Shown one piece after another: positions 470 through 18,809 of a stretch of 20,000 bases of DNA. Both the position numbers and the translations under genes were made by a program. Each line of letters starts with the position of its first letter. Within the stretch, counting starts at the first letter, position 1. Source of the stretch: Chrysochromulina tobinii (lineage: Eukaryota). The stretch spans positions 58,217-78,216 of the forward strand of contig JWZX01003325.1 of the NCBI GenBank assembly GCA_001275005.1, written 5' to 3'. The notes below the pieces were generated by a model. That model searched no databases. It saw only the letters and a program-made list of their open reading frames with translations, and was not told the DNA's origin.

Positions 470-597
470 GACTTGACTTGACTTGACGTGACTTGACTTG
501 ACTTGCTTGACTTGACTTGACTTGACTTGACTTGACTTGCTTGACTTGACTTGACTTGACTTGACTTGACTTGCTTGACTTGACTTGACTTGACTTG
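470..597. repeat. (ACTTG)n / (CAAGT)n pentanucleotide satellite with 34-bp higher-order period
   Basis: About 25 ACTTG units; the variant ACTTGCTTG recurs at 501, 535 and 569. Confidence 0.97.
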
Positions 598-686
598 TCG
601 TGAGGTGACCGCTGTGTGCGACGCGGCGCGTTCGTCGATCGCGGCACTGGGCTCGATTCACAGGACGCCTTTAGCTTGCAGGCAAC

Positions 687-2783
687 ATGCTGGTACTGAC
701 CCTCTACGCGCAGCTCGCGCTGCTAAACTTGACTTCCTTGATCGGCATAGATGTTAATCTCGACCTGAGCAGCCGGCGGTTACTCGATCTATCGCTAACC
801 ATCCCGCTGGTCGACGCCGCCGCCGCCGCCGACGCCGAAACCGCCGACGCCGACGCAGCAGCCGCCGCAGCCGCCGCAGCCGCCGAAGTCGCCGAAGCCG
901 AAGCTGCCGACCGTGCCGCTGCTGCCGTCCATGCCGCTGAAAGTTTTGAAGCTGAGCCGCTGGTGCCGTCTCCTCCACTGGCTCCAAGCCCGCCGCTGCC
1001 TCCACGGGCTCCGAGCCCGCCGCCACCCACGCCGCCGCCTCCGTTCCCGCCGCCCTCGCCCTCTCCTTCGCCTCCGTCGCCCTCTCCGCCGCCTCCTTCG
1101 ATGCCGCCGCCCGCCATCCCGCCATATTGTGGGCGGGGCGTGTGGTCGTACGCGTGCAGCCCCCCGCCGCCCTCGCCGCCCCCGGCGCCAGCGCCGCCAG
1201 CACCGCCCCAATTGCCGGTGGTCACCTTCCACTTCGACGACCCGATTGCGCTGCACCTGAAGGAGCCCGTTGGCTGGCGCAACGTCGGCACGCACCTATG
1301 GCGTCGAGCGGTGACGTCGTTGCACGGTGACGGCAATCGCAAGACGGGCCCAGGCGGCCCCGCTCCCAGCGAGACGGCCACGGGCAGTTATTGGTACTAT
1401 GCGGGTGGGCGAGGGGAGAGGGATTTCGATCTACTTGGCCATCAAACCCGCGCTGACGCCAAGTACATCCTAGAGTACATGGGGAATGAGTGCCACACAG
1501 AGGGGGGGTCGGGCATCATCGGCCACGTGTCATTCTACTACCACATGTGGGTGGCGACCGGCAAGTCGCTCACGGCGAGCTTCATGCCGCGGGTGACGGG
1601 GCATTTCCGCGTGTTCGCCGTCGGAGGGCAGCGAGAGGGTAGCAATGGCGATGACCGGCACCTGCTCTTCTCACGCATGGGCAGTCAGGGCGACGAGTGG
1701 CACCACGTTCGGTTGGAGGTGCAGGCCCGTGCAGTGCAGTTTGAGTACGAGCGGAGTGTGGGACGGGCGGACGTGGCGCTCGCCGAAGTGACAGTCGAGT
1801 GCGCTCACGAGCCGCCCGCGCCGCCGCCGGAGCCGCCCGCGCCGCCGCCGGAGCCGCCCTCGCCGCCCAGGCCGCCTCATCCGCCGCCCTCGCCGCCCAG
1901 GCCGCCGCATCCGCCACGGCCCATGCACCCGCCCCATGCTCCTTTTTACGAGCCGCCGCCGCGGTCGGAATGGGTAAACACGATCCTTATCATCTTGAGC
2001 TTGATCTTCACGATCTTAGCAGGTCGCGACTTCGCCGTGTGTATCGACTACAAGGTGATTACCTTCTTGAGTGCCTCGAATCGCCTCCGACTGCCGCTCA
2101 TTGCCTCCGACTGCCGCTAACTCCCTCCGACTGCCGCTCATTGCCTCCGATTGCCGCTAATTACCTCCGATTGCCGCTCATTGCCTCCGATTGCCGCTAA
2201 TTACCTCCGATTGCCGCTCATTGCCTCCGATTGCCGCTAATTACCACCGACTTCTCCGTATGTATCGAGTAGAAGGTAATCACTGGCGACGACGATTGTT
2301 CCATCACGATTGCCTTCACGATTGCCGCTGATGGCGTCCGATTGCCTCCCTCATCAGGCTGATCAGTGGTCCGAGGCAGCAGCAAAGCAGGTGCCCGTGG
2401 ACGATGACGAGGACGCCATCGACGAAGAAAAGGCCGCCGCCGATCGAGTGAGAGCTTTGCAAGGCCTTGGCCCGCGTACACCGTCCAGAGGTCACACCAC
2501 GCCGTCGGGGGGCGCCAAGCTTGTCGTGGGTGGCTCTGCGGCGACCACGGGCGCTGCGGCCGCCAAGGCGCGTGCCTCCGCAATCTCAGTGCAGGCGGCG
2601 ATGGACGCGGGGCACTCCGCAACGAACGCGTCGCGCCTAGAGGCGCTCGAGATGATGATTAGGAACCTCATCTCCGAAAAGGACCCCAAACGACGAGACC
2701 CCGCGCTGCTTCGCAGGCTCGTGGCTGAAAAGGGGGCACTACTGGCCTCGTTCACTGAGAACAAGGACACGGAGATGCTGTGA
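687..2783 (+). CDS. Pro-rich single-pass cell-surface protein with MAM-like domain; exons 687-2054 and 2358-2783 (~597 aa)
   Basis: Hydrophobic N-terminus, then Ala-rich and SPPP/PP stalks. MAM-like motifs: FYYHMW, FSRMGSQGDEWHHVRL, VQFE, DVALAEVTVEC. TM helix WVNTILIILSLIFTILAG. Phase-0 splice AAG|GTGATT ... CTCATCAG|GCT joins ORF 687 to ORF 2310. Confidence 0.75.
2055..2357 (+). other. GT-AG intron (303 nt) with tandem repeats and an internal AG|GT at 2275/2276
   Basis: Preserves frame between the two ORFs. Contains 20-nt units TT(G/A)CCTCCGATTGCCGCT(A/C)A at about 2081-2240. Confidence 0.75.
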
Positions 2784-3328
2784 GCATGGTAGCGTTCAGA
2801 TGCGCGTTCGGAGTGATGTAGTCGTTGCATGTTGCTCGTTGGCGCGGGGTCGGGCGGTCCGCGCGCGGTTGCCGATTATTTGCGACAGTCGAGTGTTCGG
2901 TCTTTCGGTGTCCGGATCCAGTGGTCCGTGGCGGTGAGAGGCTCTGCCGGGTCCGGTCGGGTGCCGCCGCGGCGCGTGCGGCGGGCTCGGGCTGCTCCAA
3001 AAGTTACGGCTCTTCGCACTCGGCGCTCGGGCGTCCCCGGTCGGTTGTGATATCCGAGTTCCGTATACAGGTAAACTATAATCAAAATCGAATCGCAGCC
3101 CGCAGCGCGCAGGGCCGCGCGGCGGCCCCGCCCCCGCGCGGGCGCCGCCGCGACACGACTTGTGCACCGGAAATCCGGCGAGACGAAACGTGTGCGTGCA
3201 CCGTACGTCCGGTGGTGCGTTTTATCTCGAGGTCTGAGGAGCGGAGCCGGCCTGGGCTTCGAGGTTTATGCAGTTCAGGAATTGACTATCGTACAAATTG
3301 TAACAGCTGCTCTGTCGTGTCGGCGGCT

Positions 3329-4360
3329 TTACGACGAAATAGCTGCTGCTGGCCCTTTGCTCGCCGTTGGTGCCGCGACGCCGCTCCCGCCGCCACCTTC
3401 AACATCAACGGTGCCGCCCTCCTGCTCGCGCACCACGCGCTCGAGGAGCTGCTCGAGGCACTCCTCGATCGCGAAGACACCTTGGCCCGCCTTGCTTGCC
3501 ACGTGCCACTCAGGGTGCTCCGCCGCCGCACGCGACACCGATTGGGACGTCAGCCCTGGCAGGTAGTGCACCGCGCACCGCTCCGCCATCGGCAGGTCGT
3601 TATCATCGTCGAAGAGGCAGCAGGACTCGTCGGCGCGGACGCCGTACACGGCCTGCAGGTACGCGACCGCGTTGCCCTTGCCCGAAGCGGACGGGAAGAA
3701 GTCATACTTGCCAAGGTTCATCGCCCAGGTGATGCCGTGCGGCAGGTGCGCCTCGATGCACGCGCGCAGCGCGGCCTCGACGGCCGTATTGCCCTGAGTG
3801 TCGACGCGGAAGCAGCCATAGTAAGAGCGCGCGTCACACTTCAGCCCGGGCACCTCCGCCTGAAACCTCCGGAAGAGCTGCCACAGCGGCTCCGGACGCT
3901 CGCTCACATCGAGCTCGCGCTCAAGCGGGCCGCTCACCTCCTCGAAGCCCTTGGCCCACGCCTCATCGAGCGCATCCAGGCCGCCGCGGTAGATGCGCGA
4001 TCCTGTCTCGCAAACGTACGCGTCCGAGGGTGGCAGCAGAGGCTCCCGCTCGAAGAGTGTGCTCTTTCGTGCGGCGGTGACGATGACGAAGATGACACCC
4101 CGCGCGCGCAGCTCAGCGATCAGCTCGACGGTGCGCTCGCTCACGAGGCCATCGCCCATGGTGGACGATGGCAGCAGCCGGCACACACGCTGCTCGCCCG
4201 TGGGCGACTCCACGACTGCGCGCTTCGCCTGCTCATCACGACTCACAATCTTGATCCCGTGCTCCTCAAACCACGCCGGAAAATGCACGATGGTGCCGTC
4301 AAGGTCGGAGAAGATGGCGCGCACGCGAGAGGCTGGCCGCTGCAAGTCTGCAGCAGACAT
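3329..4360 (-). CDS. HAD-superfamily hydrolase, subfamily IIB (Cof / sucrose-phosphatase-like)
   Basis: Motif I IFSDLDGT, motif II IVTAARK, motif III SGKGNAV, motif IV LFDDDND. First in-frame ATG at 4360. Confidence 0.88.
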   Translation of the reverse strand: MSAADLQRPASRVRAIFSDLDGTIVHFPAWFEEHGIKIVSRDEQAKRAVVESPTGEQRVCRLLPSSTMGDGLVSERTVELIAELRARGVIFVIVTAARKSTLFEREPLLPPSDAYVCETGSRIYRGGLDALDEAWAKGFEEVSGPLERELDVSERPEPLWQLFRRFQAEVPGLKCDARSYYGCFRVDTQGNTAVEAALRACIEAHLPHGITWAMNLGKYDFFPSASGKGNAVAYLQAVYGVRADESCCLFDDDNDLPMAERCAVHYLPGLTSQSVSRAAAEHPEWHVASKAGQGVFAIEECLEQLLERVVREQEGGTVDVEGGGGSGVAAPTASKGPAAAISS

Positions 4361-4710
4361 GGTGGCGAGAAGCAGAAGCGGCGCGGATGGCGGTGGCGTG
4401 GCTGCCACGAGTGTGGAGAGTCTCCGCTCACACCCTCGTCGTCACGCCCTGGACCCAGGCTCGCGAAACGATTGCCACGACGACGCGTCTCGCCATTGCA
4501 TGCTTGCGAAACATATACTCGCTCCCTCATCTTGAACCCATCCCTAACCCATCCCTGCGGTTATATTGGAAGAGACTACAGTCCCACCGCGCACCGCAGC
4601 ACTACATCTCTACAGTGGTCAGTGACAGTGGTCCGCTTGCGACCCGCGGTGCCGCGGACACGGGTTGTGTACATGCACGCGCGGGCAAGTGGTCACGTGA
4701 TGACGCCTGA

Positions 4711-5997
4711 TCAAATCACCTGCACAAACGCGGCAGTCTGAGGCACGGGAGCCTTCCTCGCGACCAGCGCAGCCAGCATGGCTGCCTCCGCCGCCACCGC
4801 ATCCTCCTCGTCGTCGTCGTCGTCCTCCTCCTCCTCCACCTGAACAGCCGGCGGCCGCCGGAGCGGCTGAGGCGCAGAGGGCTGCACAGAGAGCGACGAT
4901 TGCGGCCAGGACCAAAGGGAAGCGACTGAGGCCCAGAGGGCTGTGGCCTGGGCGGTGCCGAAAGGGTGGGCAGGAGCCTCCTTTGGATCACCCGAAAGGT
5001 GCTGGGCAGCCTGGGTCTCCACCATGGACGTCTCCTCCTCCTTCTCCTCAAGCTCGTCGTCAACATGATCCGCATCTTCGAGCATGACGGAGATCAGCGA
5101 GTGCATGCGCCCGCGCGCGCTGGACTGGGCGCTTGGCACGGCGCTCGGTACCGCGCTCGACACGGCGCTATCCGGGCGGTTCGAGACGGGTGGTGACGCG
5201 ACGATGGGCGTGGCGGATGCCTTCGATCGCGTCTTCGCCGCCTTGCCAAAGAGCTGCCCTTTGGACACCTTGTCAATGAAGGACTTGAACAAGGTCGACT
5301 CCTTCTCCTTCTTGGGGACAGCCTTGGCATTGGAGAGTTCGGAGTGGTTGAGCTTGTGTGTGCGCACGAACTGCATAGCCTGCTGCGCCTCACGCTGCGC
5401 ATCTCGGTGCCTCCGCGCACTCGCGAGGATCTTGCCCGGTGGGGGCGAGAGCTGCGGCGAGAGCGGCGGGGAGAGCGGCGGCGAGCCCATGCAGTTGAGC
5501 GCCGGCATCGTCGGTTTGTCCTGCGACACCGTCGTTGGCGGCGCAAGGCCGTGCAGGAGCACGCGCAGCGCCTCCTTTGTCGCCTTGGATAGGCCCGAGG
5601 AACCGGCCAATGACGCGTTGGGCAACTCATCAAAGGGCTTCGACAGGTCGAAGCCCTCAAAGGCAGGGAGCACTTGGATCACAACGTCACCGCTGGCGCT
5701 TCCCAGCTGGCGTGCGGCATCGTGCGGGTCCTGGACCAGAAAGTTGTTGATGAGCACGATCCGTTCACCCGGGTAGAAGAGGCCTGCCGCCGGCCCGTTG
5801 GTGGGGGGTTCTTGAACAATCGCGCTCTGCTCGAGGATCTGCTGTTCATCGGAAGTGAGCTTCTTCGCGCGGCGATCGACATCCCACTTCGAGAAGAATT
5901 GGATCCCGAGCTTGACGTGACGAGACTCCTTGTGTAGGGTGACGGTGCGCATCATCGACTTCGAGGTGAACTTTGAGCGCTCGGAAGTCGATGCCAT
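4711..5997 (-). CDS. Protein with N-terminal PDZ-like domain and long disordered C-terminus
   Basis: TVTLHKE..KLGIQF ... GPAAGLFYPGERIVLINNFLV..PHDAARQL..ASGDVVIQV fits the PDZ pattern; Ser/Pro-rich and acidic tracts follow. ATG at 5997. Confidence 0.72.
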   Translation of the reverse strand: MASTSERSKFTSKSMMRTVTLHKESRHVKLGIQFFSKWDVDRRAKKLTSDEQQILEQSAIVQEPPTNGPAAGLFYPGERIVLINNFLVQDPHDAARQLGSASGDVVIQVLPAFEGFDLSKPFDELPNASLAGSSGLSKATKEALRVLLHGLAPPTTVSQDKPTMPALNCMGSPPLSPPLSPQLSPPPGKILASARRHRDAQREAQQAMQFVRTHKLNHSELSNAKAVPKKEKESTLFKSFIDKVSKGQLFGKAAKTRSKASATPIVASPPVSNRPDSAVSSAVPSAVPSAQSSARGRMHSLISVMLEDADHVDDELEEKEEETSMVETQAAQHLSGDPKEAPAHPFGTAQATALWASVASLWSWPQSSLSVQPSAPQPLRRPPAVQVEEEEDDDDDEEDAVAAEAAMLAALVARKAPVPQTAAFVQVI

Positions 5998-6278
5998 TTT
6001 GCACAAGGAGTCGGCAAGCTACACTCGCGCACGGTCTCGAGATCTCGCGAAGAGATTCGGGAGTTGAGCGCGGGAGTTGACCCATTGGGTTGAACATTCG
6101 AAAATTGGACAACAACATTACACTGCATCAGCGGAATTCAGTCAGCTCCACTCCCCTCGGTCAACACAAGTACTAAGTAAGTATTCGCTCGCTCGGGCTC
6201 CTTTATAGGTCTGAAACCGCGCACGCCGACCTCTTTTCACACATCACACTGTAGCACACATGGGCGTCTCGCGCGCTC

Positions 6279-8377
6279 TCACATCTCGGGGTCCAGCCAG
6301 GGGCTCTGCTCAGGCAGTTCGAGCAGCCCCTGGCCGCTGATGCCGCCCTGGGTCCACATGGAGGTGAATGTGGCCCCACTCGGTAGCAGCAGCGCCCCTT
6401 TACCTTCCTTGCGGCCGTGTACCCACAGGCCCTCATACTTGGAACCATCCGTCAGATGGAACGTACCCATGCCGTGGCGCTGGTTGTCGCGCCACGAGCC
6501 CTCGTACCTGCTGTTGTTCGCGTACAGCAGGACGCCCTGCCCCTCTGCCCTATCATCGGTCCATTGGCCACGGAACATGTCGCCATTCGCATAATGCAGC
6601 TCGCCGATGCCGTGCTTCTTGCCGCCTACAAATGCGCCGACGTACTTGTCCCCGCTGGGCGAGGTGAGTGTACCCAGGCCATGCACCTGGTCGGCCACCC
6701 ATGTGGCCTCGAGCCGCTCGCCGGTGGAGAGCCGGAGCAGCACGCCGCGTCCCTCCTTGAGATTGTCGACGAACTCTCCATCGTATCGGATCTGACCGTC
6801 GGTATACGAGCCGCGACCGTGCATGCGCCCCTCGATGAACTCGCCCTCGAAGGACGAGCCGTCCGGGTAGACGTACCTGTGGGGAGGTGAGGGCGCCGTG
6901 AGGAGCACTTGCATGCGGGTGAGGGCGCCGTGAGGAGCACTTGCATGCAAGCAGCGCCCACGAGTTCGAGCGCGCCGTCCGGGTTGACGTACCGACCGAA
7001 CCCGTGCATCTTTCCCTGCAACCACTGGCCATCGTACTGCTCGACGCCAGGCGCCGTGACAGGCACGGCGGCGGAGGCGGCCGCGGCGTCGGAGGCAGCG
7101 GTGGCGCCCTCGGCGCCCGGCTCGGCGCCCGGTCGCTCCCACACAAGGACGAGGCCCTTGCCCGAGGCGGCGGCTCGCCGAATGCGCGCTGCGGCGAGCA
7201 AGCCGACGGACGCGCGCACCGCTTGAAAGCCGCGCCGACGGTTGGCGCGCCCGCCGGCTGCGGCGGTTGCTTCAGCGGTGGGGCGTCGTCCTGAGCGCTC
7301 TGCATGAGGAGGGCCCGTTGCGGCCTGAGCGTCGTCCTGAGCATCGTCGGCAGCGTCGTCCTGAGCGTCGCCCTTGGCCGCGGTCGCGGCCTCACCGTGC
7401 TCCTCCGCCTTCGCCGCCACCTCAGCCTCCTTCTCCGCCGCCACCGCCGCCTCCTCCGGCGCTCGCACGCTCCAGCGGAGCACAGCGCCCGCGGCGGCGG
7501 CGGCGGCGGCCAAGTCGCCCTCAGATGGCGGTAAGGGGCTCTCGAACGTCTCGAGCGTCTGCACGGTGCCGTCGGCCCACTCGACGGCGAGGGGGGCGTC
7601 GGCGCCGCCTGGCGCGGGTGCGAGCACGCACCGCACGCCGTCGAGCATCGAGAATGACAGCATCTCGCCAAAGCCGTCCGGATCGCGCACATCAATGATC
7701 TCCGTTGCGCGGCCTGTCGCGTGTGGCCAGCGCAGCCGCCATGGGCCAAGCAGTGCCGGCACATACATATCTTGCGCATCGAAGCTGCGCGCGACCAGCG
7801 GCGAAGGGGCGGCCGGTGCGGGCGCTGCCGCCGGCGCCGATTCGGGCGCCGGAGCGACTTCGGCCGCCGCCGGCATCGGTGCGGCTCTGGCACCGCCCTT
7901 GCTAGCCAGCGTCGATGACGGCGCAAAGGTGAGCTTTCCCTTGCCGTTGCGCCGGTCGTCCTGCCACTCGCCCTCGTACGTATCGCCGTCGGCGTACGTG
8001 TACACGCCGTACCCATGCATCTTGCCAGAGCGCCACTCGCCCTCATACCGGTCACCGCCTGCGTAGATCAGCGTACCTTGGCCGGTGATCTTTCCGTCGT
8101 GCCACTGCCCTTCGTAGCGGTTCCCGCTGCGGTAAAAAAAGGTCCCGCGGCCGTGCGCAAGGTCATTGACCCACTCGCCCTCGTGGCGTCGGCCATCCGG
8201 ATATGCGAGCACGCCGTGGCCCTGCCTCTTGCCGTAGTTGAACTGACCCTCATAGATTTTGTCACCGGCGAACGTGGCCTTGCCCTGACCGTGCATCGAG
8301 CCGTCCTCGAGGCCACCCGAGTACGTGAGCGTCACCTCGAGACCGTCGCTCTCCTCATCGGCATCGGCTAGCGGCAT
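6279..8377 (-). CDS. MORN-repeat protein; exons 8377-6993 and 6876-6279 (~660 aa)
   Basis: Many YEGxWxxGxxHGxG repeats in two blocks. A phase-2 splice (CG|GTACGT ... CCCCACAG|G) joins ORF 6626..8590 to ORF 6279..7142 and restores the repeat MHGFGRYVYPDGSSFEGEF. Start codon is uncertain. Confidence 0.88.
6877..6992 (-). other. GT-AG intron (116 nt) with duplicated core and junction direct repeat
   Basis: Needed to restore the MORN frame. Contains two copies of GCATGCAAGTGCTCCTCACGGCGCCCTCACC (minus strand). Confidence 0.85.
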
Positions 8378-8602
8378 CCGTCGGGCGAGCGGGTGAGAGC
8401 CCCGACTCCACCGGCTAACCGCCGCCGGCGGCCCTCGATTGCGACGGAAATCAGTGCCGAAGCACGGTTGTCGCGTCGTGTTCAGGTTCATTCGGATTCT
8501 ATTCAGGGAGCTTGGGGGTGCGCGCGAAGTCGCAGAACTCGCGCGCGCGCGCGCGCCGAGCGAGACGGACCTTGCCCAAGCCCTGCGCATTGGCGTCGCA
8601 TC

Positions 8603-10039
8603 ATGCCGGCCTCAGCCTTTCATGACAAGACTTACGGGTCAATTGAGCGCGGCAACGTCCTCGGCGATCGCTCGTCGGTGCGCCAATCCCGCTACTTTCG
8701 GCAGTATGAGTCGGGCAACGCCGTCAAGTCCATCCTGGGCACCGACAACTTGCGATGGGACGTGGATCGCAAAGAGGGCGTCTTTCAGGGACACGCTGTG
8801 TACGATGGAAGCCGGCAAGAGTACGATAACGAGGCGGTGGTGCGAGCTGCTGCCGATCAGCAGGCAGACCGCCAGCCGCAAACCTACGCTCCCGTGCAAC
8901 CGGCTGCCACTCAGCAACCGAGCCGCAAGCAACTGGGCGTTGGGAGCGGCCGCTCGACAATGTCCACGACCGATGACGCGCTCTGGAACGCCGTGGGCTC
9001 GCGCGACCTGGCGGAGGTGCAGCGGCTGCTGCGCCAGGGCGCCAACCCGAATATGATCTGTCCCGATGGCTGGGTCAAGGACGAGTGCCGGCCCAAGGAC
9101 GGTAGCGTGGGCCGCTCCCTTCTGCACCACGCAGCATGGGCCGGCGACCTCAATATCTTCAAGCTGCTGGTCGCACACGGCGCGGACGTGGAGTCGCGGC
9201 GCAACACCGCCTGGCGCCCGCACGGCGGCGTCCGTGGGCGTGGCTCCACGTGCTTGCACCACGCCGTCATGTATAACCGTCGACCCATCGTTGAATACTT
9301 ACTGGATGAGTGCGGGTGCGACCTGAACCAGCCCGGTGAGCAGGGCTACACGCCGCTGCACCTGGCGGCCAAGTTCAACCTGCCGCAGCTCGTGGAGCTG
9401 CTGCTCCTGCGCGGCGCGCGCACCGACATGCTCACCAAGGACGAGAAGACCGCACGCGACCTCGCCGCACCAAAACAGGAGCGATCCCACATGCAAATGG
9501 ATGGGATGCTCGAGCTCTTCGACCGGTACGATGCAGAGGCGCGCAACCGCCCAAGGCTGCTCCCCGGAGCGCCGCTGCCACCCGACCCACGCCTCCCGAC
9601 CCACGCAGCGAACGGGACGATTGCGCGACCAATTTGGCTCACGTCCGAAGCCGCGATGCCGCCCGCGCCAGCGCAGTACACGATGCCGCCGGCCGCACAG
9701 TACATGTCGCCCATGCCACCCATGCCACCCGCGCAGCTCCCCCACACACGCTACGATCGCGACGCCGCGGCGATCGCGATCGGCTTTGTGGCTCGCCAAC
9801 CTGTGCTGAGCCATGAGCGCGGTCGCCTCCCTGCCAGCGCACCGGTGGCGCTTGCGGCGGTCCGACACTCCCCCGCCGCTGTCGCGCCACCTCCAGTGTA
9901 CCTGGGCGGCAGCGGCGGCGGCACGTCGCAGAGGCCCCCAAGCGAGTCTGCTATTCAGTCGGAGATGCGGCCCGACCAGATCTCCGATGCCGCTGCAGCG
10001 GCGACGCGCCGCCGTGCGCAGGGCTCGAGGCCGTGGTAG
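8603..10039 (+). CDS. Ankyrin-repeat protein with Pro/Ala-rich tail (~478 aa)
   Basis: Four ANK repeats: LWNAV..DLAEVQRLLRQGANPN, SLLHHAAWAG..IFKLLVAHGADV, TCLHHAV..IVEYLL, YTPLHLAA..LVELLLLRGA. First ATG at 8603. Confidence 0.9.
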   Translation: MPASAFHDKTYGSIERGNVLGDRSSVRQSRYFRQYESGNAVKSILGTDNLRWDVDRKEGVFQGHAVYDGSRQEYDNEAVVRAAADQQADRQPQTYAPVQPAATQQPSRKQLGVGSGRSTMSTTDDALWNAVGSRDLAEVQRLLRQGANPNMICPDGWVKDECRPKDGSVGRSLLHHAAWAGDLNIFKLLVAHGADVESRRNTAWRPHGGVRGRGSTCLHHAVMYNRRPIVEYLLDECGCDLNQPGEQGYTPLHLAAKFNLPQLVELLLLRGARTDMLTKDEKTARDLAAPKQERSHMQMDGMLELFDRYDAEARNRPRLLPGAPLPPDPRLPTHAANGTIARPIWLTSEAAMPPAPAQYTMPPAAQYMSPMPPMPPAQLPHTRYDRDAAAIAIGFVARQPVLSHERGRLPASAPVALAAVRHSPAAVAPPPVYLGGSGGGTSQRPPSESAIQSEMRPDQISDAAAAATRRRAQGSRPW

Positions 10040-10113
10040 GAAGGTGTGACGCGTCGTCGTGAGCGCGACCGAGGTGTGACGCGCCGTCGTGCGCAGGGCT
10101 CGAGGCCGTGGTA
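10003..10113 (+). repeat. 36-bp direct repeat of the ankyrin gene 3' end
   Basis: 10003-10038 and 10078-10113 match at 35/36 positions. Confidence 0.9.
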
Positions 10114-11324
10114 ACCAGAGGCAGAGGCAAGCGCGCCACGCCACAGTCGTTGCGTCGGTCACCGCGGCCTCGAAAGTCGAATACACAATTCCGCTTCTTC
10201 TTGTCTTCGAGAGCAAAGGACGCGACGTCGGTCGTTGCGAGGGCTTCCGGACGGGATCTGGTGCGATGCGGTTTCGGCGGCGACCGGCGTGTCGTCGTTA
10301 TCTTATCATGCGTATCTTTGAAATACTTATGTCGTCGTCATCTGTGACGAGGTGACATAAGTCCGGTCGGTCGGCGTTTTACGCGCCGCTGAGCTTATGA
10401 CGCCACGCCACGCCCTGGACCCCATCCGCCTTCTCGACCGCGACGACCACCTAACTCGCTATAGACCCTGGAGAACATATGGAGAACACTCGAGGAGAAC
10501 ACGTGGAACTAACGTGGAACCGGGACGGAAGGCAGCCGGGCCTGGCCGAGAGGCCTCGTTCCGGCATGCGGCAAGCGAACCGTTGCGAACCCCCTTAAAA
10601 CCCCTTGTGCGAACCGTGGCGTGACTGTCCACTGAAGGTACACTGAAGGAGTGAGGTTGTCGTCTACTTGTCGAAATTCGAATTGTGCGCTCTCGCCACA
10701 CTGTCACACAGTGGACATCTGTCTCCTCCAAAAGGTCGAGCTTCCACATGGAGGAGACAGTCTAGAGACAGTTAAGAGACAGTCCTCTTGAGGAGAAGCA
10801 ACCTTCTGGAGGGCACGACGAAACGTCGAGACGAATCGCTGTGGCACGGTCTTGTACACACGTCACGGTGATATCTCAAGAGTGGTAGTAACGTGAAAGC
10901 ATGAACTCGTCGTTCTCCTCACACACTGTATACTCCTCACTCCTGTGCTCTCCAATTTCCAATCACACATGTCTCCAATTCTCCATCTCGCACGCGCACG
11001 CGATCTCCTGCTCTCCTCGTCCTCCGAGCCACAGTTCCCCACAAACGTACAGTGAGCGACAGTTTGTGATCACGCCCCGCCCTGTCAAGACGTTCGCCTT
11101 AACGTTCGCCCACCTTCACCCACCTTCTCGCCGCGCGACCACGGCACATTCTTGGTGCCGAGAGCCACTCAGCCACACACCTGCACGTGTGCACCTCTCT
11201 GGCGCACGCTCACGTCTGCCGTGGGTCTGCCCGTCTGCCGTACGTCTGCCGCGTATCTGCCGCGCACACCACAACTCCACACGACCGCGCTGTAGACCGC
11301 TGTAAAAGCACCGCTGCGTGAAAC

Positions 11325-12116
11325 TCAACGAGGGCGTACCGCATTCAGAGTCCCTCTCATCTTGTACTGACGTGACGCCTCGTCGTAGTGCACACCGATG
11401 TGTGCGGCGTAGCCTCGTCTCGTCGTAGCGTTCTTCTCTGCCCACGCCAGTGCGTCAATGACCGTCTGGGCGTAGAAAATTGCGCGTAGCTCACCCTGCT
11501 CGCCAAAGATGACATGGATGGGGTACGTCGCTACGTGGGCACGCTCTTGGATGGACACGCCGACGGCTTGCTTGCACAGCTCGACGTTAATCAGGTGAAG
11601 CAGACCAACGGATCCGTCAACGAAGGACTTCGTGGCGACCATGCAAAGAGTCGGGGGGATGTCCCAGTCCTTCATCGTTTTCGGATCCTTGGGTACGGCC
11701 ATGAGCAATGTCGTACGTCCACGACCATGTAGCCGGCGCGCTCGGCCAAGCAGGAATGGGGCCGGCTTGTGTGACTCTGCCAGGAAGAGAACAAATCTAT
11801 CCCAGGCCGCAGAGAGCTGCTGGTCATTTGGCATGGGCACATGCAGTCCTGAGCGCAACTCCACATCCGTGGCGTTGTACGTGCAAGTAGCTTGCGAGCT
11901 GACGATATTTTCGGGCTTAGCCGCAATTTCCTCGCCTGTGCCATTGACACGCACACCATAGCGCCAGCGGGATTCGATCCAAGAAATGACTTGCCCATTC
12001 TTGCCGTTCAGGTCGCCACGTGACTGTAACCCAACGAATTGGACATCATCACCTATCCCGTGGGTGCTACTGCCACCCCAATTTAGCGTGAGCAACATCG
12101 GTACAGGTTCAGTCAT
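11325..12116 (-). CDS. Hypothetical protein (~263 aa) with small N-terminal SH3-like beta domain
   Basis: GDDVQFVGLQSRGDLNGKNGQV...RYGVRV...IAAKPENI resembles a motif I recognise from algal/protist proteins. Long ORF in lower-GC DNA with normal amino-acid composition. Start is uncertain. Confidence 0.65.
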   Translation of the reverse strand: MTEPVPMLLTLNWGGSSTHGIGDDVQFVGLQSRGDLNGKNGQVISWIESRWRYGVRVNGTGEEIAAKPENIVSSQATCTYNATDVELRSGLHVPMPNDQQLSAAWDRFVLFLAESHKPAPFLLGRARRLHGRGRTTLLMAVPKDPKTMKDWDIPPTLCMVATKSFVDGSVGLLHLINVELCKQAVGVSIQERAHVATYPIHVIFGEQGELRAIFYAQTVIDALAWAEKNATTRRGYAAHIGVHYDEASRQYKMRGTLNAVRPR

Positions 12117-12404
12117 GATGATGTCGCAGCCGAAGTGCACGTTGGGGTGGGGGCAACCTTTCTTCTCGCCTCGACCGCCGCGTGCGGCCCCAAACTCTGC
12201 ACAGAACGCGCGTGTGGAGACTTTTTTTCGGAGCCTCCGCGTCGAGAAAAAGGAGAAAACCGGCGGAATGCATGCAATTTGATTGTTTACGTTCGTGCTT
12301 TGCGACATTTCTCCCTCCAGCAAAAACTCCTGCGGAAGGAAGATCCCAAGCCCCTGACATGCCCCCATGCATGCGTACCCGCGAGGCCGCTGCGCGCGCC
12401 GCGC

Positions 12405-14306
12405 TCACATGCCAAACGCATCCAAAAAGTCGTCCGCCGTCGCGTTGCCGCCGTGCACGTCGACCTCGGACGCGTCAAACTTGTGCATGCCGCCCGCCAC
12501 CTTGATGCCCGAGGCCTCGAGCTCCTGCATCCTTGCGATTCTCGCGTCCTCCTCCTTCTCCTTCTCCTTCGCCTTCTTGGCGTTTTCCTCGATCTTCTTC
12601 TTCATCTCCGCCGCCTCCTGCTCCTTGAGAGCCTTGAGGTCGAATTCCGGCGCTGTCTCGGGCGCTGCCGGTTCGGCAGCAGGCGCTGTCTCGGGCGCTG
12701 CCGGTTCGGCAGCAGGCGCTGTCTCGGGCGCTGCCGGTTCGGCAGCAGGCGCTGTCTCGGGCGCTGCCGGTTTGGCAGCAGGCTCGCTCGTGGCCGAGGT
12801 TACGGAGTCCGCATCGGCATGCCAGAGGACGCCATGGCCACCCACCTGCGTCTCAAGCAATCAGAATGCAATCAGAATGCAAACGGAATGCAATCAGAAT
12901 GCAATCAGAATGCAATCGCCCACCTGCGTCTCAAAGCAGCTGAAGCCCTGAGCCTCGAGTCGGGACCGAGCCCGTGCAGTCGCGGCGGTTACAGCCTCGC
13001 TTAGGGGCACGTGTGCGTGCCCGAGCACCGTGAACGCGCAACCTCCGCCGCCTGCACCCGTCAGCTTGGTCGGCAAACCTTCCTCGCGCGTGATCGAGAC
13101 GACTTGGTCGAGGGCCGCATGGCCCACCCCGAGCGCACAGAGCAGATGGTGGTTCATGCTCACGAGCTGTCCGATCGTAGCGAGCTCGCCCGCGTCGTCG
13201 CTTGGTTCGACAGTCGGCTCTTTCCCCACAGTCGGCTCTTTCCCCACAGTCGGCTCTTTCCCCACAGTCGGGTCGGCGGCGCTCTCGGCGGCAGCGCCGC
13301 CAGTTGTTCTCGTGAGCGCGAGGAATCCATCGGCGATGGTTCCGATCGCTTCAAACATGAGCTTTGTTGCGGCTGGATGGGCTTCGTGCAAAGTACGCAC
13401 ACCACCGACAAGCGCCCGCGTCGAGCGCGGCACTTTTGTGTTCGTGATGAGCACACGCAGCCTGGGCATGGTCGGGACGGGATCGAAGCGCTTCGCCTGC
13501 CCGTCGCGCACGTGGCGAATCGCATCGCCCGCGCACGACACCTGATTATCGAGCCCACTAGGCGTGCCGTGAAGGATGCACTCGGCGGCGTACGCCCATC
13601 CATTGATCAAGGCCTTCGCCGCCTCGCCCGGGCAGACTGCCGGTCGGTCCGCGGACTGGACGCGCAGCGACACTCGCGTGCCGTCCAGCAAGGAGGGGCC
13701 GCCGGCACCACCGGCCTTCTCGCCGCTGCCAAAGAGGCGCAGCCGCAGCTGGAGCAGCGCCGCCGCCAGCGCCACGCTGAACGCGGCGCTCGAGCCAAGG
13801 CCAGCGCCCAGTGGCAGAGCCGCGCTGCTTACGCGGATGCGCAGGCCCGTGTAGGCGTTGACGGGCGCATTGGACACGCCCACCACCGCGGCTTCGAAGA
13901 GCTCGGGCAGCAAAGCACGGCTCAAGAAGAGCAGCGGCACGAGGGCAGCACGGTCGGCTGACGGCACGGAGGAGAGCGCGCTCTGCAGGATGGCGATGTA
14001 CGCCTCCGTTGGCGGCGCCGGCTCGCGCCAGCCTTTGATAGCTCCCGAAGCATTCGAAAGCGCCGCAACCAGTGACGCAATAGAGGCACGCAGCTCGATG
14101 CACGCGTTGCCACCAGCCTCGGAAGCGGCAGCGCTCGGCAGGTCATCGAGTGACGCCGAAAGCTCGCCGTCACGCGTCGCCTCCGCGTGCACCGTGACGC
14201 GCAGCATCGAGAGCGCGGCCGCCACGGCCGCATACCCGTACACGACCGAATGCTCGCCAAACAGGATGAGCTTGCCCGGAGCACTCGCCTCGACGTGCAT
14301 CTCCAT
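12405..14306 (-). CDS. MVK: Mevalonate kinase with C-terminal extension; exons 14306-12924 and 12845-12405
   Basis: [51 protein letters not shown]. Splicing restores the terminal [10 protein letters not shown] motif. Confidence 0.93.
12648..12785 (-). repeat. Coding 33-bp tandem repeat, ([11 protein letters not shown]) x ~4
   Basis: Near-identical GGCGCTGTCTCGGGCGCTGCCGGTTCGGCAGCA units on the + strand. Confidence 0.93.
12846..12923 (-). other. GT-AG intron (78 nt) made of an 11-bp tandem repeat, with perfect 16-bp junction direct repeat
   Basis: (GCAATCAGAAT) x ~5.5 lies between two copies of CCCACCTGCGTCTCAA at 12841-12856 and 12919-12934. Retention gives an in-frame stop. Confidence 0.9.
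13210..13271 (-). repeat. Coding 18-bp tandem repeat, (PTVGKE) x ~3.4, inside MVK
   Basis: Identical ACAGTCGGCTCTTTCCCC units. Confidence 0.93.
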
Positions 14307-14439
14307 TGCCAAAGTGTGCGCGCGATCTTGGGTGTCGAACAATTTCGTGAATTTCGTTACATACCGTGTTAACCGGCCGCCCTCCGCCTGCGTCGCAAAA
14401 TCGCGTTACCGAATTCCCGCCCGTGCAGACGTGCAGAAA

Positions 14440-15694
14440 ATGCTGATTTCGTGCGCTGCTCTGCCCACACGGATACCGGCGGCCAAGCGGCTGCCACAGG
14501 CGCGCGCGGACGACCCGCAGGCAGCGCTCTCGCTTGCGGTGATGCGACTTCGCGCGCTGCCCGCGTGGGGCGTCGACTCGGACATTGAGCAGCTCTGCCG
14601 GCAGGCCCCGCCCTTTGGCATCGCCGACGCCCCAGACCGCATCCACAGTGCGTTGTGGAGTGTGCCAGAGGAGCGGAATGCGTCCATGGCGCTCCGGAAC
14701 AACACCTCGCCGGGATCGGCTGCGCGCGCGTGCGTGCAACTCGGCCACGTCATCCACCGCGTCACCGGCCGGCCGCGCCGAACCGCCTTCAGCACGTGCG
14801 CCGTGGTCGGCTCGAGCGGCGGCTTGAAGGGCAGCCGCCAGGGCGAGCTGATCGACGCGCACGATGCCGTGGTGCGTTTCAACACCGCACCCACCGGCGG
14901 CCAGTACGCCGCCGACGTGGGCAACCGTACGAGCCTGTGGGTGGCCTCGCACGTGCCGTGGCGCTCACAGCTACGGACCCGTGTGGGCTTGGCATCTGAG
15001 GAGGAGGCGGCGCTGTACTGCTTCAACCCGTGGCTGGGCACGTGCTTCAACGAGGCGCTCAGCGGGCGCGCGCGCGATGCGCGCGGCCGCCCAAGCACGC
15101 CGCTGCTCGTCAGTCCCCTCGTGACGTCTGCGATGATGGCGATCCAGGTATGTTGATTGCCACTGATGACCTTCCCTTGCATGCAAGTGCTCACCACGGC
15201 GCGAGTCGGAGGAGCAGGTACATTGATTGCCACTGATGACCTTCCCTTGCATGCAAGTGCTCACCACAGCGATGGCGGCGATCCAGGTGTCATTGGGCGG
15301 AAAGTCATCGGGGCCGGTTCGCCCGAGTACGGGGCTCATCGGCGTGGGGCTCGCGCTCGCGATGTGCGCGCGCGTCTCGCTCTACGGCTTTGCCAATGTC
15401 AGTGAGCCCTCCGCCATGAAGCTGTGCAACCACTACTACGACTGCCGGTTCAACCAGTCGCGCTACCAGTCGGGCAAGATGGGGTACCACGACTGGAAAG
15501 GGCAGTGGCTTGTGCTGTCCGCGCTCGTCGAGCTGGGCGCGTTGCGGTACGAGCCGCCCCGCGGACCGCTCGACGGGAGCAGCGCCGGCGACTACGTGCC
15601 GCACTCGCCGCCACCCAAGCGGGTACGGGGCGGACGCGCGGGCTCGGGCGGGGCCCTGAAGAAGGGCAGCCGACAGGCCCTGGACACGGCTTGA
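14440..15694 (+). CDS. GT29 sialyltransferase-like protein; exons 14440-15147 and 15287-15694 (~371 aa)
   Basis: Sialylmotif [33 protein letters not shown]...DVGNRT; motif [24 protein letters not shown]; motif III HYYD; VS-like HDWKGQ. Confidence 0.9.
15148..15286 (+). other. GT-AG intron (139 nt) built of two tandem GT..AG units (70 + 69 nt)
   Basis: Phase-0 CAG|GTATG ... CAG|GTG joins the motif L and motif S frames. Internal CAG|GTAC at 15217/15218. Confidence 0.88.
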
Positions 15695-15797
15695 GCTTTG
15701 AGGGGCCCGTACATCGCCCGCACGCGCACGCGTAGCTTTGGAGTGGGCTATTCTGCGGTTGACCTTTTCGCTATGAAATTGGTGAACCAAACAACCA

Positions 15798-16433
15798 ATG
15801 TCGGCCCTCTTCGTCGTCGCCTCAACACTCATCGCGGGCCTCACCATCCAGCCGCTCGACCGCCGCACACTCTTGCACGGCGTGAGCCGAGCTTCTGCCG
15901 CAGCTGCCGCTGTTGCCATTCTGCCGCCGGTGATCGCCGAAGAGCAATTCGTGGCCAAAAGGGCACGGGACGCTACCGAGCTGAAGGGCTCGGGTGGCCT
16001 TTCGTCGTACAATGAACTGAAGCTTACCAACGCGTTGAAGGAGCTGGCTGGTGCACCAGTCGCTGCAGATATCAAGCCGTCGGTGGACGTCATATCCGGC
16101 GCACTGCCGCTCATCACCCAGAACAAGGTGCCCGACGGCGCCAAAATTTCACAAGCCGCCGACGCGCTCGCAAACCTCGTGCTCACCGGAGATCTGCAGA
16201 CCCAGGCTGCATCACTTGTCAAGAAGAGCGCCGACATACGCGCGGCAATAGTGAAGGCGGATGCCAACGCCGCAGCGATCGCGGCGACGGCGTTCGTGGA
16301 CGAGCTCGTCGAGTTCTGCTACAGCTACGAAGGGGCTGAGAAACCACTGGCCGAGCTGCGCATGGGCGTGCCCCCCGTCTTCGACGCCGAGCGCAAGAAG
16401 ATTGACCTTCCCGTTTCGGGAAGGACCCTCTGA
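15798..16433 (+). CDS. Predicted plastid thylakoid-lumen protein (signal peptide plus Tat signal), helical mature part
   Basis: Hydrophobic N-terminus, then RRTLL, an Ala-rich hydrophobic stretch and a VIA-E cleavage-like site. The mature region is amphipathic and Ala/Leu-rich. Confidence 0.75.
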   Translation: MSALFVVASTLIAGLTIQPLDRRTLLHGVSRASAAAAAVAILPPVIAEEQFVAKRARDATELKGSGGLSSYNELKLTNALKELAGAPVAADIKPSVDVISGALPLITQNKVPDGAKISQAADALANLVLTGDLQTQAASLVKKSADIRAAIVKADANAAAIAATAFVDELVEFCYSYEGAEKPLAELRMGVPPVFDAERKKIDLPVSGRTL

Positions 16434-16885
16434 CGCAAGAGCTGAGCACGATGACGCGGCTTGATGGCATGATGAGAGACACATGAAGCAATTGGACATG
16501 GGCACACAGGATGGTCATGCGTGGGGGTGCCTTATTAGTGGAACATAATCCACGAGGTCTTGAACATAAAGTATTCGCCGTTACGCAACTCAGGGCACCG
16601 CAGCGCAGCGACCGTATATTACTACTCGTATCTCGTTCGTCGTTCCGTTCTATTACTCCTCCACAGTGCACAGAGGGGTCCGAAACTGTGGTCCAGACTG
16701 GTGGTGGCTGGACGTGCGAAGCTCTCCTGTGTCGCGCGTCGGCGGCGGAGCGTCAGCGAGTCAGGAGCGGGGCTCTTTTCTAGGGGTTGTGATTGGTTGT
16801 GATGTGAATGTGAATGATTGGGTGTGAATGTGAATGAAGCCCCACCTAGCCCGCGTGCCCGTGCAGCGTGCCCGCCCGTGCGACG

Positions 16886-18087
16886 ATGAGTTTTGCGGGG
16901 ACTAAGCGCGGCTGCGACGACACGACACTCGTGGCGGCACCGTCCGAGAAGCGCGCGAATCCTGGTGGCGGCGCGCTCGTCGCAGCGGGTGCGGAGGGCG
17001 GGGCGCTCATTGCCGCCGGGCCGGCGCGCACGAGCGACCTCCTCGCGCCCATCATGCTGCTGACGGGCCACGCGGGTGCGGTGCTGTCATGCAAGTTCAG
17101 TCCTGACGGGCAGCACGTGGCTCTCGGGCTCGTCAAGACAAGATGCTGCTGCTTTGGGACACATATGGCGAGTGCGATAACACCATGAACTTCAAAGGCC
17201 ATTCCAACGCCGTCCTCGAGGTTCACTGGGCGTCGGACGGCGAGACTGCCTTCAGCTGCTCCGCCGACAAGACGGGAGCGCTCTGGGACGCGAAGACGGG
17301 CGCGCGCATCCGTCAGTTCAGGGGCCACACGGCGGTGGTCAACTCGCTCTGCCCGTCGCGCGACTCGTCGGTGCTCGCGACAGCCTCGGACGACCGCAGC
17401 GCGCGCGTGTGGGATGCGCGCGTTCGCACCTGCCAGCACACGATCACGCACCCGTACGCAGTGACGGCGACGTGCGTGTCGCACGACGGGATGGCGCTCT
17501 TCACCGGCAGCCTCGACGGGCGTGTGCGCTGGTATGACCTGCGCCGCCCCGGATCCGTGCAGCACGAGCTGAACGGGCATGCGGACATCGTGAGCGGCCT
17601 GAGCCTGTCTCACGACGGCCAGTCACTACTCTCAAATGCGATGGATAATGTGGTGCGCTGCTGGGACGTGAAGCCGTACGCGACCGCCGATCGGTGCACG
17701 AAGCACTTTCTCGGCGCCTCGCACAATTACGAGAAGGGCCTTCTGAGGCCGAGCTGGAGTGTGAACGGTTCACAGGTGGCCGCGGGCTCGGCGGACCATT
17801 TCGTCTATGTGTGGGACGTGGGCACGCGCCGCATCTCGTACGTCTGATGGCCTCTCGTCGGCCTCTGAGCGCCTCTGAGTGCCTCTGATGGCCTCTGATG
17901 ACCTCTGATGACCTCTGATGACCTCTGATGGCCTCTAATGACCTCTGATGACCTCCCTCATCTCAGGTACAAGCTGCCCGGGCACACGGGCTCCGTGAAC
18001 GAGGTTGGCTTCCATCCGACCCAGCCCATCCTTTGCTCGTGTGGGAATGATCGGCAGATCTTTCTGGGCGAGATCCGGCCGACTTGA
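16886..18087 (+). CDS. SNRNP40: U5 snRNP 40 kDa WD40 protein; apparent frameshift near 17121-17136; exons 16886-17837 and 17967-18087
   Basis: APIMLLTGH..VLSCKFSPDG, LLLWDTYGECDN..KGH, HNYEKGLL, AAGSADHFVYVWD. The hand-translated last exon YKLPGHTGSVNEVGFHPTQPILCSCGNDRQIFLGEI matches the SNRNP40 C-terminus. Confidence 0.9.
17838..17966 (+). other. GT-AG intron (129 nt) made of 10-bp (G/A)CCTCTGATG repeats
   Basis: TC|GTACGT ... CATCTCAG|GTACAAG restores RRISYKLPGH. Confidence 0.92.
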
Positions 18088-18809
18088 GGCGCCCGATGCG
18101 CAGAGCGACGCCTCTTGACGGACGATCATTGCACGGCTATACAACGCTTCGATAGACCTGAGAGAGATACCCTGTACCTCCCTATAGCCTCCCTAACCAC
18201 CACATCTCCACATGTGAGATGGCGACTCGATGGCGACCCCCCGAGGCGAACCAGGCGTCCGGCCCGTTCGGGTATTTCCGTTAGATTGTTCTTTGAGGGC
18301 CCCGGCCGCACCGTCGCAGTGTAGAGTCGAGTGTTCGAGTTTGCCGTTATGAGGACCGGCCCGCCGTCGGGTTTCGGACACGGGAGGTAGAGTGTTCAGC
18401 GCCGATTGCGACGCACCCGACGCCGACGAGAGTTTGCGGCATCCGCGCCGCCGCGTCCGCGCAAGCGGGAATGATTCAAGCGCGCATCCGCTCCGCGCCG
18501 AGACCGCCGACGTTTCTCGACGTCCGCGCATAAATAAGCAAAAGTGAAAAGACGCCGGCCGGCGGGTGGGGCGTCAGGGGGCGCCTCAGGAGAAGGCGCG
18601 GGAGGTGCGTGGCGTGTGGGCCGCCGCGGCGCGTCCCGCAGGAGCGGCGCTTGGCGCGCTGCCAAGCGCTGTGCTTAAGCGCTGCTGCCGCCGGGTGCGG
18701 GTTCGGTTCCGACCCTTGACGCCGTCTACTATACGCTTGAGCTTTACTGCAACATCTCATTGGTTTTCAACATGTCTAGGTACCTTGTTCGGTGTCTTTT
18801 TACGGGTGC

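Follow-up and report, generated by a model that had tools for sequence, protein, structure and literature searches.

Single introns in five genes of the window

The stretch of DNA analysed here (the window, 20,000 nt of contig JWZX01003325.1 of the Chrysochromulina tobinii assembly GCA_001275005.1) holds a proline-rich membrane-protein gene (687–2783), a MORN gene, the mevalonate kinase (MVK) gene, a GT29 gene and SNRNP40, each with a single intron (Table 1). The first is called the MAM gene, a label for which no Pfam match was found at E ≤ 0.001. Four of the five introns predicted in the earlier note on this DNA are joined in RNA contigs, whereas the GT29 joint (15148–15286) is absent among the RNA joints listed (15 of 25); the two GT29 exon frames each match one end of PF00777. 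Two single-base errors were found in the window, at 17120 and 17133. The description of all five introns as mostly short tandem repeats fits their TRF repeat cover (MAM 200/303, MORN 63/116, MVK 61/78, GT29 139/139 and SNRNP40 113/129 nt), but the periods in MORN and GT29 are 32 and 70 nt, so short repeats do not account for all five.

Table 1 Introns, duplications and filler elements, in window coordinates
Feature	Position	Strand	Details
MAM gene intron	2055..2357	+	303 nt, GT..AG; RNA joint in 3 of 4 runs; spliced frame open
MAM repeat copy 1	2027..2062	+	36 nt, exon end and first 8 intron bases; 30/36 to copy 2
MAM tandem array	2079..2252	+	20/40-nt array of family II vocabulary, from tandem-repeat finding
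MAM repeat copy 2	2248..2283	+	intron-internal, offset 221 of 303; unused donor-like site
MAM family II acceptor end	2340..2357	+	common to SNRNP40 intron and many other genes
MORN intron	6877..6992	-	116 nt, class B; RNA joint in 1 of 4 runs (X14)
MORN exonic copy	6858..6877	-	exon 2 start and last intron base
MORN family I core	6935..6951	-	palindrome and branch-point motif
MORN linker	6952..6973	-	22 nt; 20/22 to exon-derived part of L058 intron, beside same core
MORN intronic copy of downstream exon start	6974..6993	-	19/20 in register
MVK intron	12846..12923	-	78 nt; RNA joint in 4 of 4 runs
MVK repeat copy 1	12919..12934	-	across donor; 16/16
MVK repeat copy 2	12841..12856	-	across acceptor; 16/16
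GT29 intron	15148..15286	+	139 nt, class A; predicted from exon frames and PF00777 halves
GT29 copy 1	15130..15149	+	exon end and GT; 18/20
GT29 middle segment	15198..15217	+	20 nt between two units; not local exon
GT29 copy 2	15269..15288	+	supplies AG; 18/20
SNRNP40 intron	17838..17966	+	129 nt; family II 10-mer array; without long junction repeat; RNA joint in 4 of 4 runs

Duplicated exon ends at three splice junctions

Junction-spanning repeats had been claimed for four of these introns. Those of MORN, MVK and GT29 stand, lying in register and scoring as only 0.2% or fewer of shuffled pairs do. In the MORN intron, the donor is supplied by the duplicated exon start and the acceptor by a piece of an intron family (family I); related proteins show one other, different change here, which makes an exact ancestral copy likely. 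Both splice sites of the MVK intron fall inside the duplicated segment, with an 11-nt array as filler. The GT29 intron contains two family I donor units and takes its acceptor from the duplicated exon end; another GT29 allele (P0200, as a read-through) has a local exon copy in place of the middle segment, whose source was not found in the motif-selected loci described below. The MAM repeat does not span its junction, as copy 2 lies 221 nt from the donor and 82 nt short of the RNA-proven acceptor, and RNA uses the sites at 2055 and 2357, skipping this copy. As an unused donor-like site inside the intron, copy 2 points to a secondary duplication at an older donor. The weak repeat noted in SNRNP40 reduces to a GTAC shared in register (4 nt), the rest being out of register and negligible.

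Intron filler comes from two dispersed families

A genome-wide test was replaced by an analysis of 130 loci (0.7 Mb) selected by core motif, of which four metagenome loci without the family tail (L017, L049, L053, L059) and 21 overlapping loci were dropped from later counts. Scans with the family motifs gave 0 and 3 matches in viral contigs, the 3 being kept out of the analysis, and 0 in genome contigs.

Rather than being satellite-like, as first described, the filler is a vocabulary common to many genes, made up of pieces of two dispersed intron families that carry a branch point. The family I core forms 158 non-redundant islands at unrelated genic sites, family II contributes 98 acceptor ends, and vocabulary islands occur at ~0.4 per kb in these motif-selected loci. 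Using a coding classifier that misreads ~1 in 8 coding pieces, 3 of the 122 islands with two classified flanks were intergenic-like, compared with 511 of 1729 background windows; orientations were mixed in 2/335 islands. A telomerase-type filler was rejected, the vocabulary differing from TTAGGG, the telomere repeat of haptophytes. Emiliania introns are held to be rich in 10–11-nt repeats; a literature search found no support for this.

Duplications of variable length enclose intron pieces

In-register duplications were present at 59/97 family I acceptors, 32/65 family II acceptors and 27/39 family I donors, as against 0.1%, 0.3% and 1% of cross-locus shuffled pairs, with 38 of 200 acceptors left out as array-internal and two allelic pairs counted twice. 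The excess over shuffled pairs anticipated in the earlier note is thus present in motif-selected loci, and a test free of splice sites gave 76/158 versus 0.6%. The layout is an exon copy, an intron piece and a second exon copy, from which splicing restores the mRNA. Class B pieces carry the branch-point motif and 3′ splice site and class A pieces the 5′ splice site; other pieces have neither. The duplicated exon supplies what the piece lacks. The proposal that a duplicated exonic (A)G|GT furnishes the splice sites therefore describes MVK, where both arise in this way; usually the exon gives one only and the piece brings the other.

The 118 duplications include 55 that are still perfect. In 78, the copy borders directly on exon at its outer side, where nothing is left of an older donor or acceptor; the other 40 are nested within an older intron or at its margin, making no new one, as exemplified by two RNA-proven introns of locus L004 and the MAM intron. 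The 78 non-nested duplications measure 10–61 nt (median 24, IQR 17–32) without a mode or a fixed TSD length, and terminal inverted repeats (TIRs) of at least 6 nt accompany 2 of the 78, which is chance level (0.7% of shuffled pairs), in keeping with the long, variable, TIR-free duplications initially reported. Duplication length correlates negatively with piece length (rho −0.65), partly as a measuring effect, and the copies differ by 50 transitions and 47 transversions. About half of the family introns have no long in-register repeat, and the same is true of 6 of the 8 that are RNA-joined.

Presence and absence among assemblies and relatives

Three filled/empty pairs, unpolarised in direction, were identified among assemblies, in which the empty allele has a single copy and an open frame. 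Loci L116 and L133 are empty in two assemblies, and empty alleles have their own substitutions in or beside the repeat. The mismatch load of young duplications, looked at for signs of error-prone synthesis, is ~4 in 84, beside an allelic divergence of 2–3%. Long contigs of other haptophytes run through the SNRNP40 and MVK intron sites without interruption, and a read-through suggests that a sister group has an MVK intron that is missing from the window gene. The P0221 cluster represents the sister group at ~91% protein identity. The window belongs to the C. tobinii/parva clade, and all proteins of this clade that were read contain the five window introns. The earlier note had argued for an intron-generating process with recent gain, calling for a search for presence/absence polymorphism and for a comparison of the MVK and SNRNP40 positions across haptophytes; the three filled/empty pairs, the absence of both introns from other haptophytes and the excess of in-register duplications all support this. 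Such presence/absence at orthologous sites matches introners in the broad sense, meaning repeated sequences that create introns.

Ragged inner ends, microhomology and probable neighbouring donors

The inner switch point of class B pieces is ragged, ranging from −79 to +25 relative to the core, and class A pieces stop 2 to 21 nt beyond the branch motif, with one at −8. Where it could be read (32/80 and 13/18 junctions), microhomology was modest but above expectation (1.66 vs 0.69 nt, n = 32; 1.85 vs 0.94 nt, n = 13); in 48 of the 80 class B cases the switch point lacks vocabulary. These ragged ends, along with the microhomology excess at readable junctions, are consistent with the template-switch or repair-like signature proposed earlier.

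Likeness was higher between pieces less than 1.5 kb apart than between those of separate loci (0.855 vs 0.805; 0.757 vs 0.707). The best match lay in cis in 10/52 (1.8 expected) and 9/46 (1.4 expected), the pairs not being independent, and most best matches (42/52 and 37/46) were elsewhere; later gene conversion could also produce the likeness of neighbours. In the three polymorphic cases, the intron next to the insert came 1st, joint 3rd and joint 5th in a ranking of ~276. Since each window gene has one intron only, cis donors cannot account for the window introns. Class A pieces are ~90% alike across loci, as copies of a master element would be. Pol theta would be expected to leave inverted templated inserts, and inverted templating of linkers was not enriched (5/23 vs 17.6%); continuation of the downstream exon past an indel was commoner in linkers (7/23 vs 9%).

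Introns as probable products of a copying slip

Because an intron piece lies between two exon copies and is cleanly absent from some assemblies, new introns in this freshwater alga likely arise through a copying slip that draws on existing introns, often the one next to them, rather than through a known transposon. The specific scheme in which microhomology drives a template switch onto an existing intron, synthesis returns 10–60 nt back and selection then retains spliceable products is one that we consider about evenly poised between right and wrong. Guided by a few matching bases, synthesis across an exon of a transcribed gene would slip to an existing intron, copy a piece of it and re-enter the exon 10–60 bases back. 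Often an adjacent intron of that gene would act as donor, sometimes one located far away, and the template would probably be RNA, either pre-mRNA or an excised intron, since pieces hardly occur outside genes or on the antisense strand. To survive, a product would need a GT, a branch point, an AG and at least ~60 nt, a filter that would account for the length of the duplications. Slips of this kind at old junctions, with unequal exchange between copies, would build tandem arrays. More tentatively, and with the balance leaning against it, we suggest a transposon-free chain reaction that is still running, in which any intron of the clade can template new ones via two microhomology switches, mostly through RNA of transcribed genes; each new intron would become a new donor, at times with scraps of its old host exon, and introner searches would miss the process, given that every intron is half site-specific.

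The main rival, unlikely in our judgement though a serious one, holds that a LINE-type enzyme retrotransposes short intron-derived RNAs by target-primed reverse transcription (TPRT), so that the duplications are true TSDs and the pieces SINE-like introners. The copy-piece-copy layout with its variable duplication length fits this, and so does the family I core, which can fold into a five-pair stem with each pair kept in 91–99% of 229 copies; non-LTR introners make up ~5% of classified introner families (PMC12130899). The fixed 3′ end and ragged 5′ end of class B resemble 5′ truncation, although the AG end is needed for splicing too, and the class A 3′ end is ragged. No poly(A) tail was seen in the introns inspected, and a crude motif search of 569 long ORFs in the 0.7 Mb (~1% of a genome) found no reverse transcriptase. 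Retrotransposition also sits poorly with the near absence of copies from intergenic DNA and the antisense strand, with the neighbour bias of donors, and with two unrelated fillers and a plain 11-mer array leaving the same footprint.

It is improbable that the introns are older, with duplications that arose later in tandem at their junctions and empty alleles that reflect precise loss through annealing of the copies. The nested duplications (MAM and L004 among them) and the presence of the window introns throughout the clade proteins read favour such a history, and precise loss through junction homology is proposed in PMC3020277. Against it stand the non-nested majority with exon directly outside the copy, the many perfect duplications, the SNRNP40 and MVK introns missing from other haptophytes, and the MVK intron that a sister group appears to have and the window gene lacks.

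A cut-and-paste transposase mobilising MITE-type introners, the mechanism proposed for marine Chrysochromulina, Micromonas and Polarella, would account for many similar copies in unrelated genes and for pieces carrying one splice site and co-opting the other (cf. Fig. 2C of PMC9860276). We rate this reading as very improbable, and it is already contradicted on three features: duplications without a mode instead of a fixed 3–9 nt, TIRs at chance level, and ragged ends without defined end-to-end likeness. Assembly artefacts, for which the two single-base errors might speak, have a negligible chance of explaining the repeats, given that RNA joints excise exactly the repeat-bearing segments, that twelve DNA runs (four of which may be the assembly source) hold 0.96–0.98 of the words of 8400–18200, that repeat copies differ from one another, and that empty alleles have substitutions of their own and recur in two assemblies at L116 and L133. 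Runs X19–X21, with a share of 0.00–0.02, were left out.

Relation to known routes of intron gain

The origin of new spliceosomal introns is a long-standing open question. To our knowledge, transposons have so far been held responsible for large-scale gains, and few cases of gain by repair or by intron copying are on record. In C. tobinii the gains are dense in the motif-selected loci and still polymorphic, and donor, target and both junctions can be read from their footprint. As the alga is in culture and its genomes are public, population genomics and mutation accumulation offer tests of the mechanism. Gene models in the public record pass over such introns, the MVK models of C. tobinii and C. 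parva losing ~290 residues. A supplement of an introner survey lists 0 families for GCA_001275005.1 (PMC12130899), which suggests that such gains are undercounted elsewhere.

Introners of a marine Chrysochromulina sp. (Gozashti et al. 2022, PMC9860276) share with C. tobinii the genus label, genic sites, the lack of TIRs, and the carriage of one splice site with the other co-opted from the duplication; their TSD is 4 bp, whereas C. tobinii duplications are longer and variable, with ragged pieces carrying either splice site or neither. Polarella glacialis and Symbiodinium have introner-like elements (bioRxiv 10.1101/2020.10.14.339549) that likewise comprise several families per genome, with splice sites from the element, the TSD or both. 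They differ in having a TSD fixed per class at 3–8 nt, defined ends, several classes that function in either orientation and, in Symbiodinium, inverted repeats.

Rice repair insertions, as summarised in PMC7407515, similarly combine a tandem or partly tandem duplication with filler from near or ectopic donors, and are not described there as intron-making, genic or sense-biased. Neointrons of Daphnia pulex, attributed to staggered double-strand breaks (PMC4202315, PMC3020277), are also polymorphic, with direct repeats at their ends and internal repeats. Junction repeats above background, and microhomology in the readable subset, thus resemble Daphnia-type repair gain; the Daphnia inserts are mostly of unknown source (BLAST sources for 4/90), whereas nearly all C. 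tobinii inserts are pieces of resident intron families, often neighbour-like. In tandem genomic duplication, a duplicated exonic AG|GT gives the splice sites, as in MVK, and in intron transposition, of which only 14 unambiguous cases were counted, intron sequence appears at new sites, as here (both reviewed in PMC3443670). C. tobinii joins these two routes in one event, placing a partial intron between two exon copies.

Introns of the window and their shared filler

The phenomenon is real, spliced and far above chance. Each of the five introns in the window consists largely of tandem repeats (54–100% covered), as the earlier note had described, and RNA contigs join the exons across four of them; the GT29 joint is absent among the 15 RNA joints listed, and the removal of this intron from the transcript is suggested by two frames, one matching the start of PF00777 and the other its end. 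Among the four junction-spanning repeats claimed earlier, those of MORN, MVK and GT29 are in register with both splice sites, but that of the first gene does not span the junction, its second copy being intronic, 82 nt before the RNA-used acceptor; the SNRNP40 repeat is weak, as had been noted. Proteins of C. tobinii and C. parva share 90% clusters with the window proteins, and the named SNRNP40 proteins closest to the window belong to other haptophytes. Two surplus single bases that disrupt the SNRNP40 frame are missing in all four RNA runs while related proteins are intact, and are thus assembly errors.

Locations of window introns, polymorphic inserts (filled or empty by allele) and neighbouring features
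Feature	Location	Strand	RNA runs with contigs skipping it (GT..AG)	Repeat or duplication
First-gene intron	2055–2357	+	3/4	30/36
MORN intron	6877–6992	−	1/4	19/20
MVK intron	12846–12923	−	4/4	16/16
GT29 intron	15148–15286	+		18/20
SNRNP40 intron	17838–17966	+	4/4	four bases in register
Polymorphic insert, 78 nt	L019 vs L021			~32 nt
Polymorphic insert, 79 nt	L112 vs L116 and L133			~25 nt
Polymorphic insert, 70 nt	L084 vs L031			~27 nt
Family I core with GCATGC and branch motif (example)	6935–6951	−		
Surplus bases	17120, 17133			
Mevalonate kinase tail	12405–12845	−		
Raised RNA depth	12402–12651			
CATG-palindrome arrays	18855–19340, 19690–20000			
GACTT array, intergenic	470–609			
GACTT array, intron region	L013, ~10250–10340			
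Antisense family II copies	L060, 5229–5605			
Class A introns	L006, 7608; L047, 5319	−		

The MORN and GT29 introns have a 17-nt core in common (family I), and the first-gene and SNRNP40 introns an acceptor end (family II, with 10-mer arrays). A core-motif scan returned at least 131 stretches in which the same anatomy recurs. In class A introns, an exon with an AG end is followed by a donor piece of the family that extends through the core, and then by a copy of the exon end; in class B, a GT-starting copy of the next exon's start leads into the core or a 10-mer array and a family acceptor; a third type, seen in MVK, has nothing but filler between two copies. GCTCA, invariant in the family I core and inside a possible five-pair hairpin, resembles a branch-point motif. 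Directly before it stands a near-invariant GCATGC (229 copies), identical to the Fox-1 binding word of animals and possibly a splicing enhancer. One core stem position is mostly A in class A (39/52) and mostly G in other copies (93/134). Family introns cluster strongly in four loci (L031, L060, L004 and L011; 7–16 per gene or 10-kb stretch), the window genes having one each; in L060, antisense family II copies lie inside the tandem array of one intron, one of only two islands of mixed orientation.

Other features were also seen. The mevalonate kinase carries a 146-residue tail missing from its nearest relatives, which stop shortly past the VGGHG motif. Over 12402–12651 the RNA depth is far higher, with loose ends on both sides, and the tail looks as if copied from another, highly expressed gene. 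Arrays of 10–11-nt and ~60-nt units on a CATG-centred palindrome have a vocabulary distinct from both intron families; the second has its start in a minus-strand frame and is possibly an intron. A GACTT pentamer array occurs both intergenically and within an intron region. The C. parva model P0146 (1158 residues) fuses the window's MORN, 4711–5997 and HAD-hydrolase genes, through either annotation error or read-through.

Junction duplications exceed chance

The comparison of donor and acceptor flanks proposed earlier was run on motif-selected loci (~0.7 Mb, rather than the whole genome), which family II entered via flanks, and the expected excess of junction repeats was found. Anchored solely on family splice sites, with ~970 cross-locus pairs per set as control, in-register duplications scoring at least 10 occurred at 59/97 family I acceptors (0.1% of control pairs), 32/65 family II acceptors (0.3%) and 27/39 family I donors (1%), where a further 7/39 were false internal matches with score 0. 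With splice sites unused and family words masked, the figures were 76/158 versus 0.6% of 1500. Exon lies directly outside 78 of the 118 duplications; the other 40 lie nested within older introns. At a second locus, four CT..AC joints appear in 3/3 RNA runs and are absent from the DNA run; none has a long in-register repeat and two have nested ones. The length of another RNA contig fits removal of a 99-nt intron bearing a duplication. Altogether, eight RNA-joined introns comprise two with in-register repeats, three with nested repeats and three with none.

Class A introns of different genes (in L006, L047, L025, L037, L070 and L079) have one 3′ tail in common, which the exon ends match over 9–14 nt. 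Some apparent duplications may therefore reflect a tail carried over from a different locus that landed where homology guided it.

Probable recent and lineage-specific gains

All-against-all comparison of loci aligned seven allelic pairs, three of which show clean presence/absence. The empty alleles have a single copy, an open frame and flanks diverged by 2–3%, and are genomic, since they retain neighbouring introns; the intron-generating process is apparently still running. Across the clade proteins examined, the window introns are fixed (13/13 long SNRNP40 proteins and 11/11 MORN proteins stop in the intron), although clusters of this kind favour intron-bearing alleles. Mapping in orthologues, as suggested earlier, gave uninterrupted sites in other haptophytes, both for SNRNP40 (proteins on 7–38-kb contigs, and two reading through a different intron) and for MVK (relatives on 8–16-kb contigs). 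In a sister MVK cluster, 12 of the 15 listed proteins finish in family II vocabulary read as protein. This lies ~30 codons upstream of the intron in the window MVK, at a point where the window gene is continuous, and suggests a second lineage-specific gain.

Origin of the inserts

Three observations point to nearby intron donors: pieces separated by less than 1.5 kb resemble each other more, best matches in cis exceed expectation five- to sixfold, and for each of the three polymorphic inserts the adjacent intron ranks among the top 2% of ~276 candidates, two inserts sharing rare variants with it. Distant donors are indicated by the MORN linker, which matches the exon-derived part of an intron at another locus (L058) at 20/22 bases. 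In the readable subset (32/80 and 13/18 junctions), inner-junction microhomology is in excess, which counts for template switching. Intergenic-looking islands are scarce (3/122, versus 30% of background windows) and orientation is mixed in 2/335 islands, both of which count for a link to transcription. Selection alone accounts for one end always lying at a splice site and for products of at least 60 nt, but not for the intergenic scarcity.

An existing intron would serve as template, from which synthesis would copy a piece before returning to the exon. The template is probably RNA; we infer it, the enzyme and the lesion. We regard this intron-templated copy-and-return synthesis with evenly balanced confidence, and consider LINE-driven retrotransposition, from which sequence alone cannot fully separate it, less likely. 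Three features count against a transposase: across loci the duplications have no modal length, TIRs are at chance level (the earlier note had seen none in the window), and inner ends are ragged.

Comparison with known systems

The literature searched gave no account of such a footprint for this lineage; one might be contained in subscription papers, in the journal article that followed the dinoflagellate preprint or in some supplements. Marine Chrysochromulina MAG introners have a 4-bp TSD and no TIR (PMC9860276, whose supplement mentions C. tobinii once among the matches listed, in the genome list), C. tobinii scored 0 introner families (PMC12130899), and dinoflagellate TSDs are 3–8 nt, fixed per class (bioRxiv 10.1101/2020.10.14.339549); related literature includes PMC4202315, PMC3020277, PMC3443670, PMC7407515, PMC8469720, PMC11282704 and PMC4580454. 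The system functions as an introner in the broad sense, but differs from MITE-type introners in duplication length, TIRs and inner ends, and its inserts come from another source than those of Daphnia-type repair gains.
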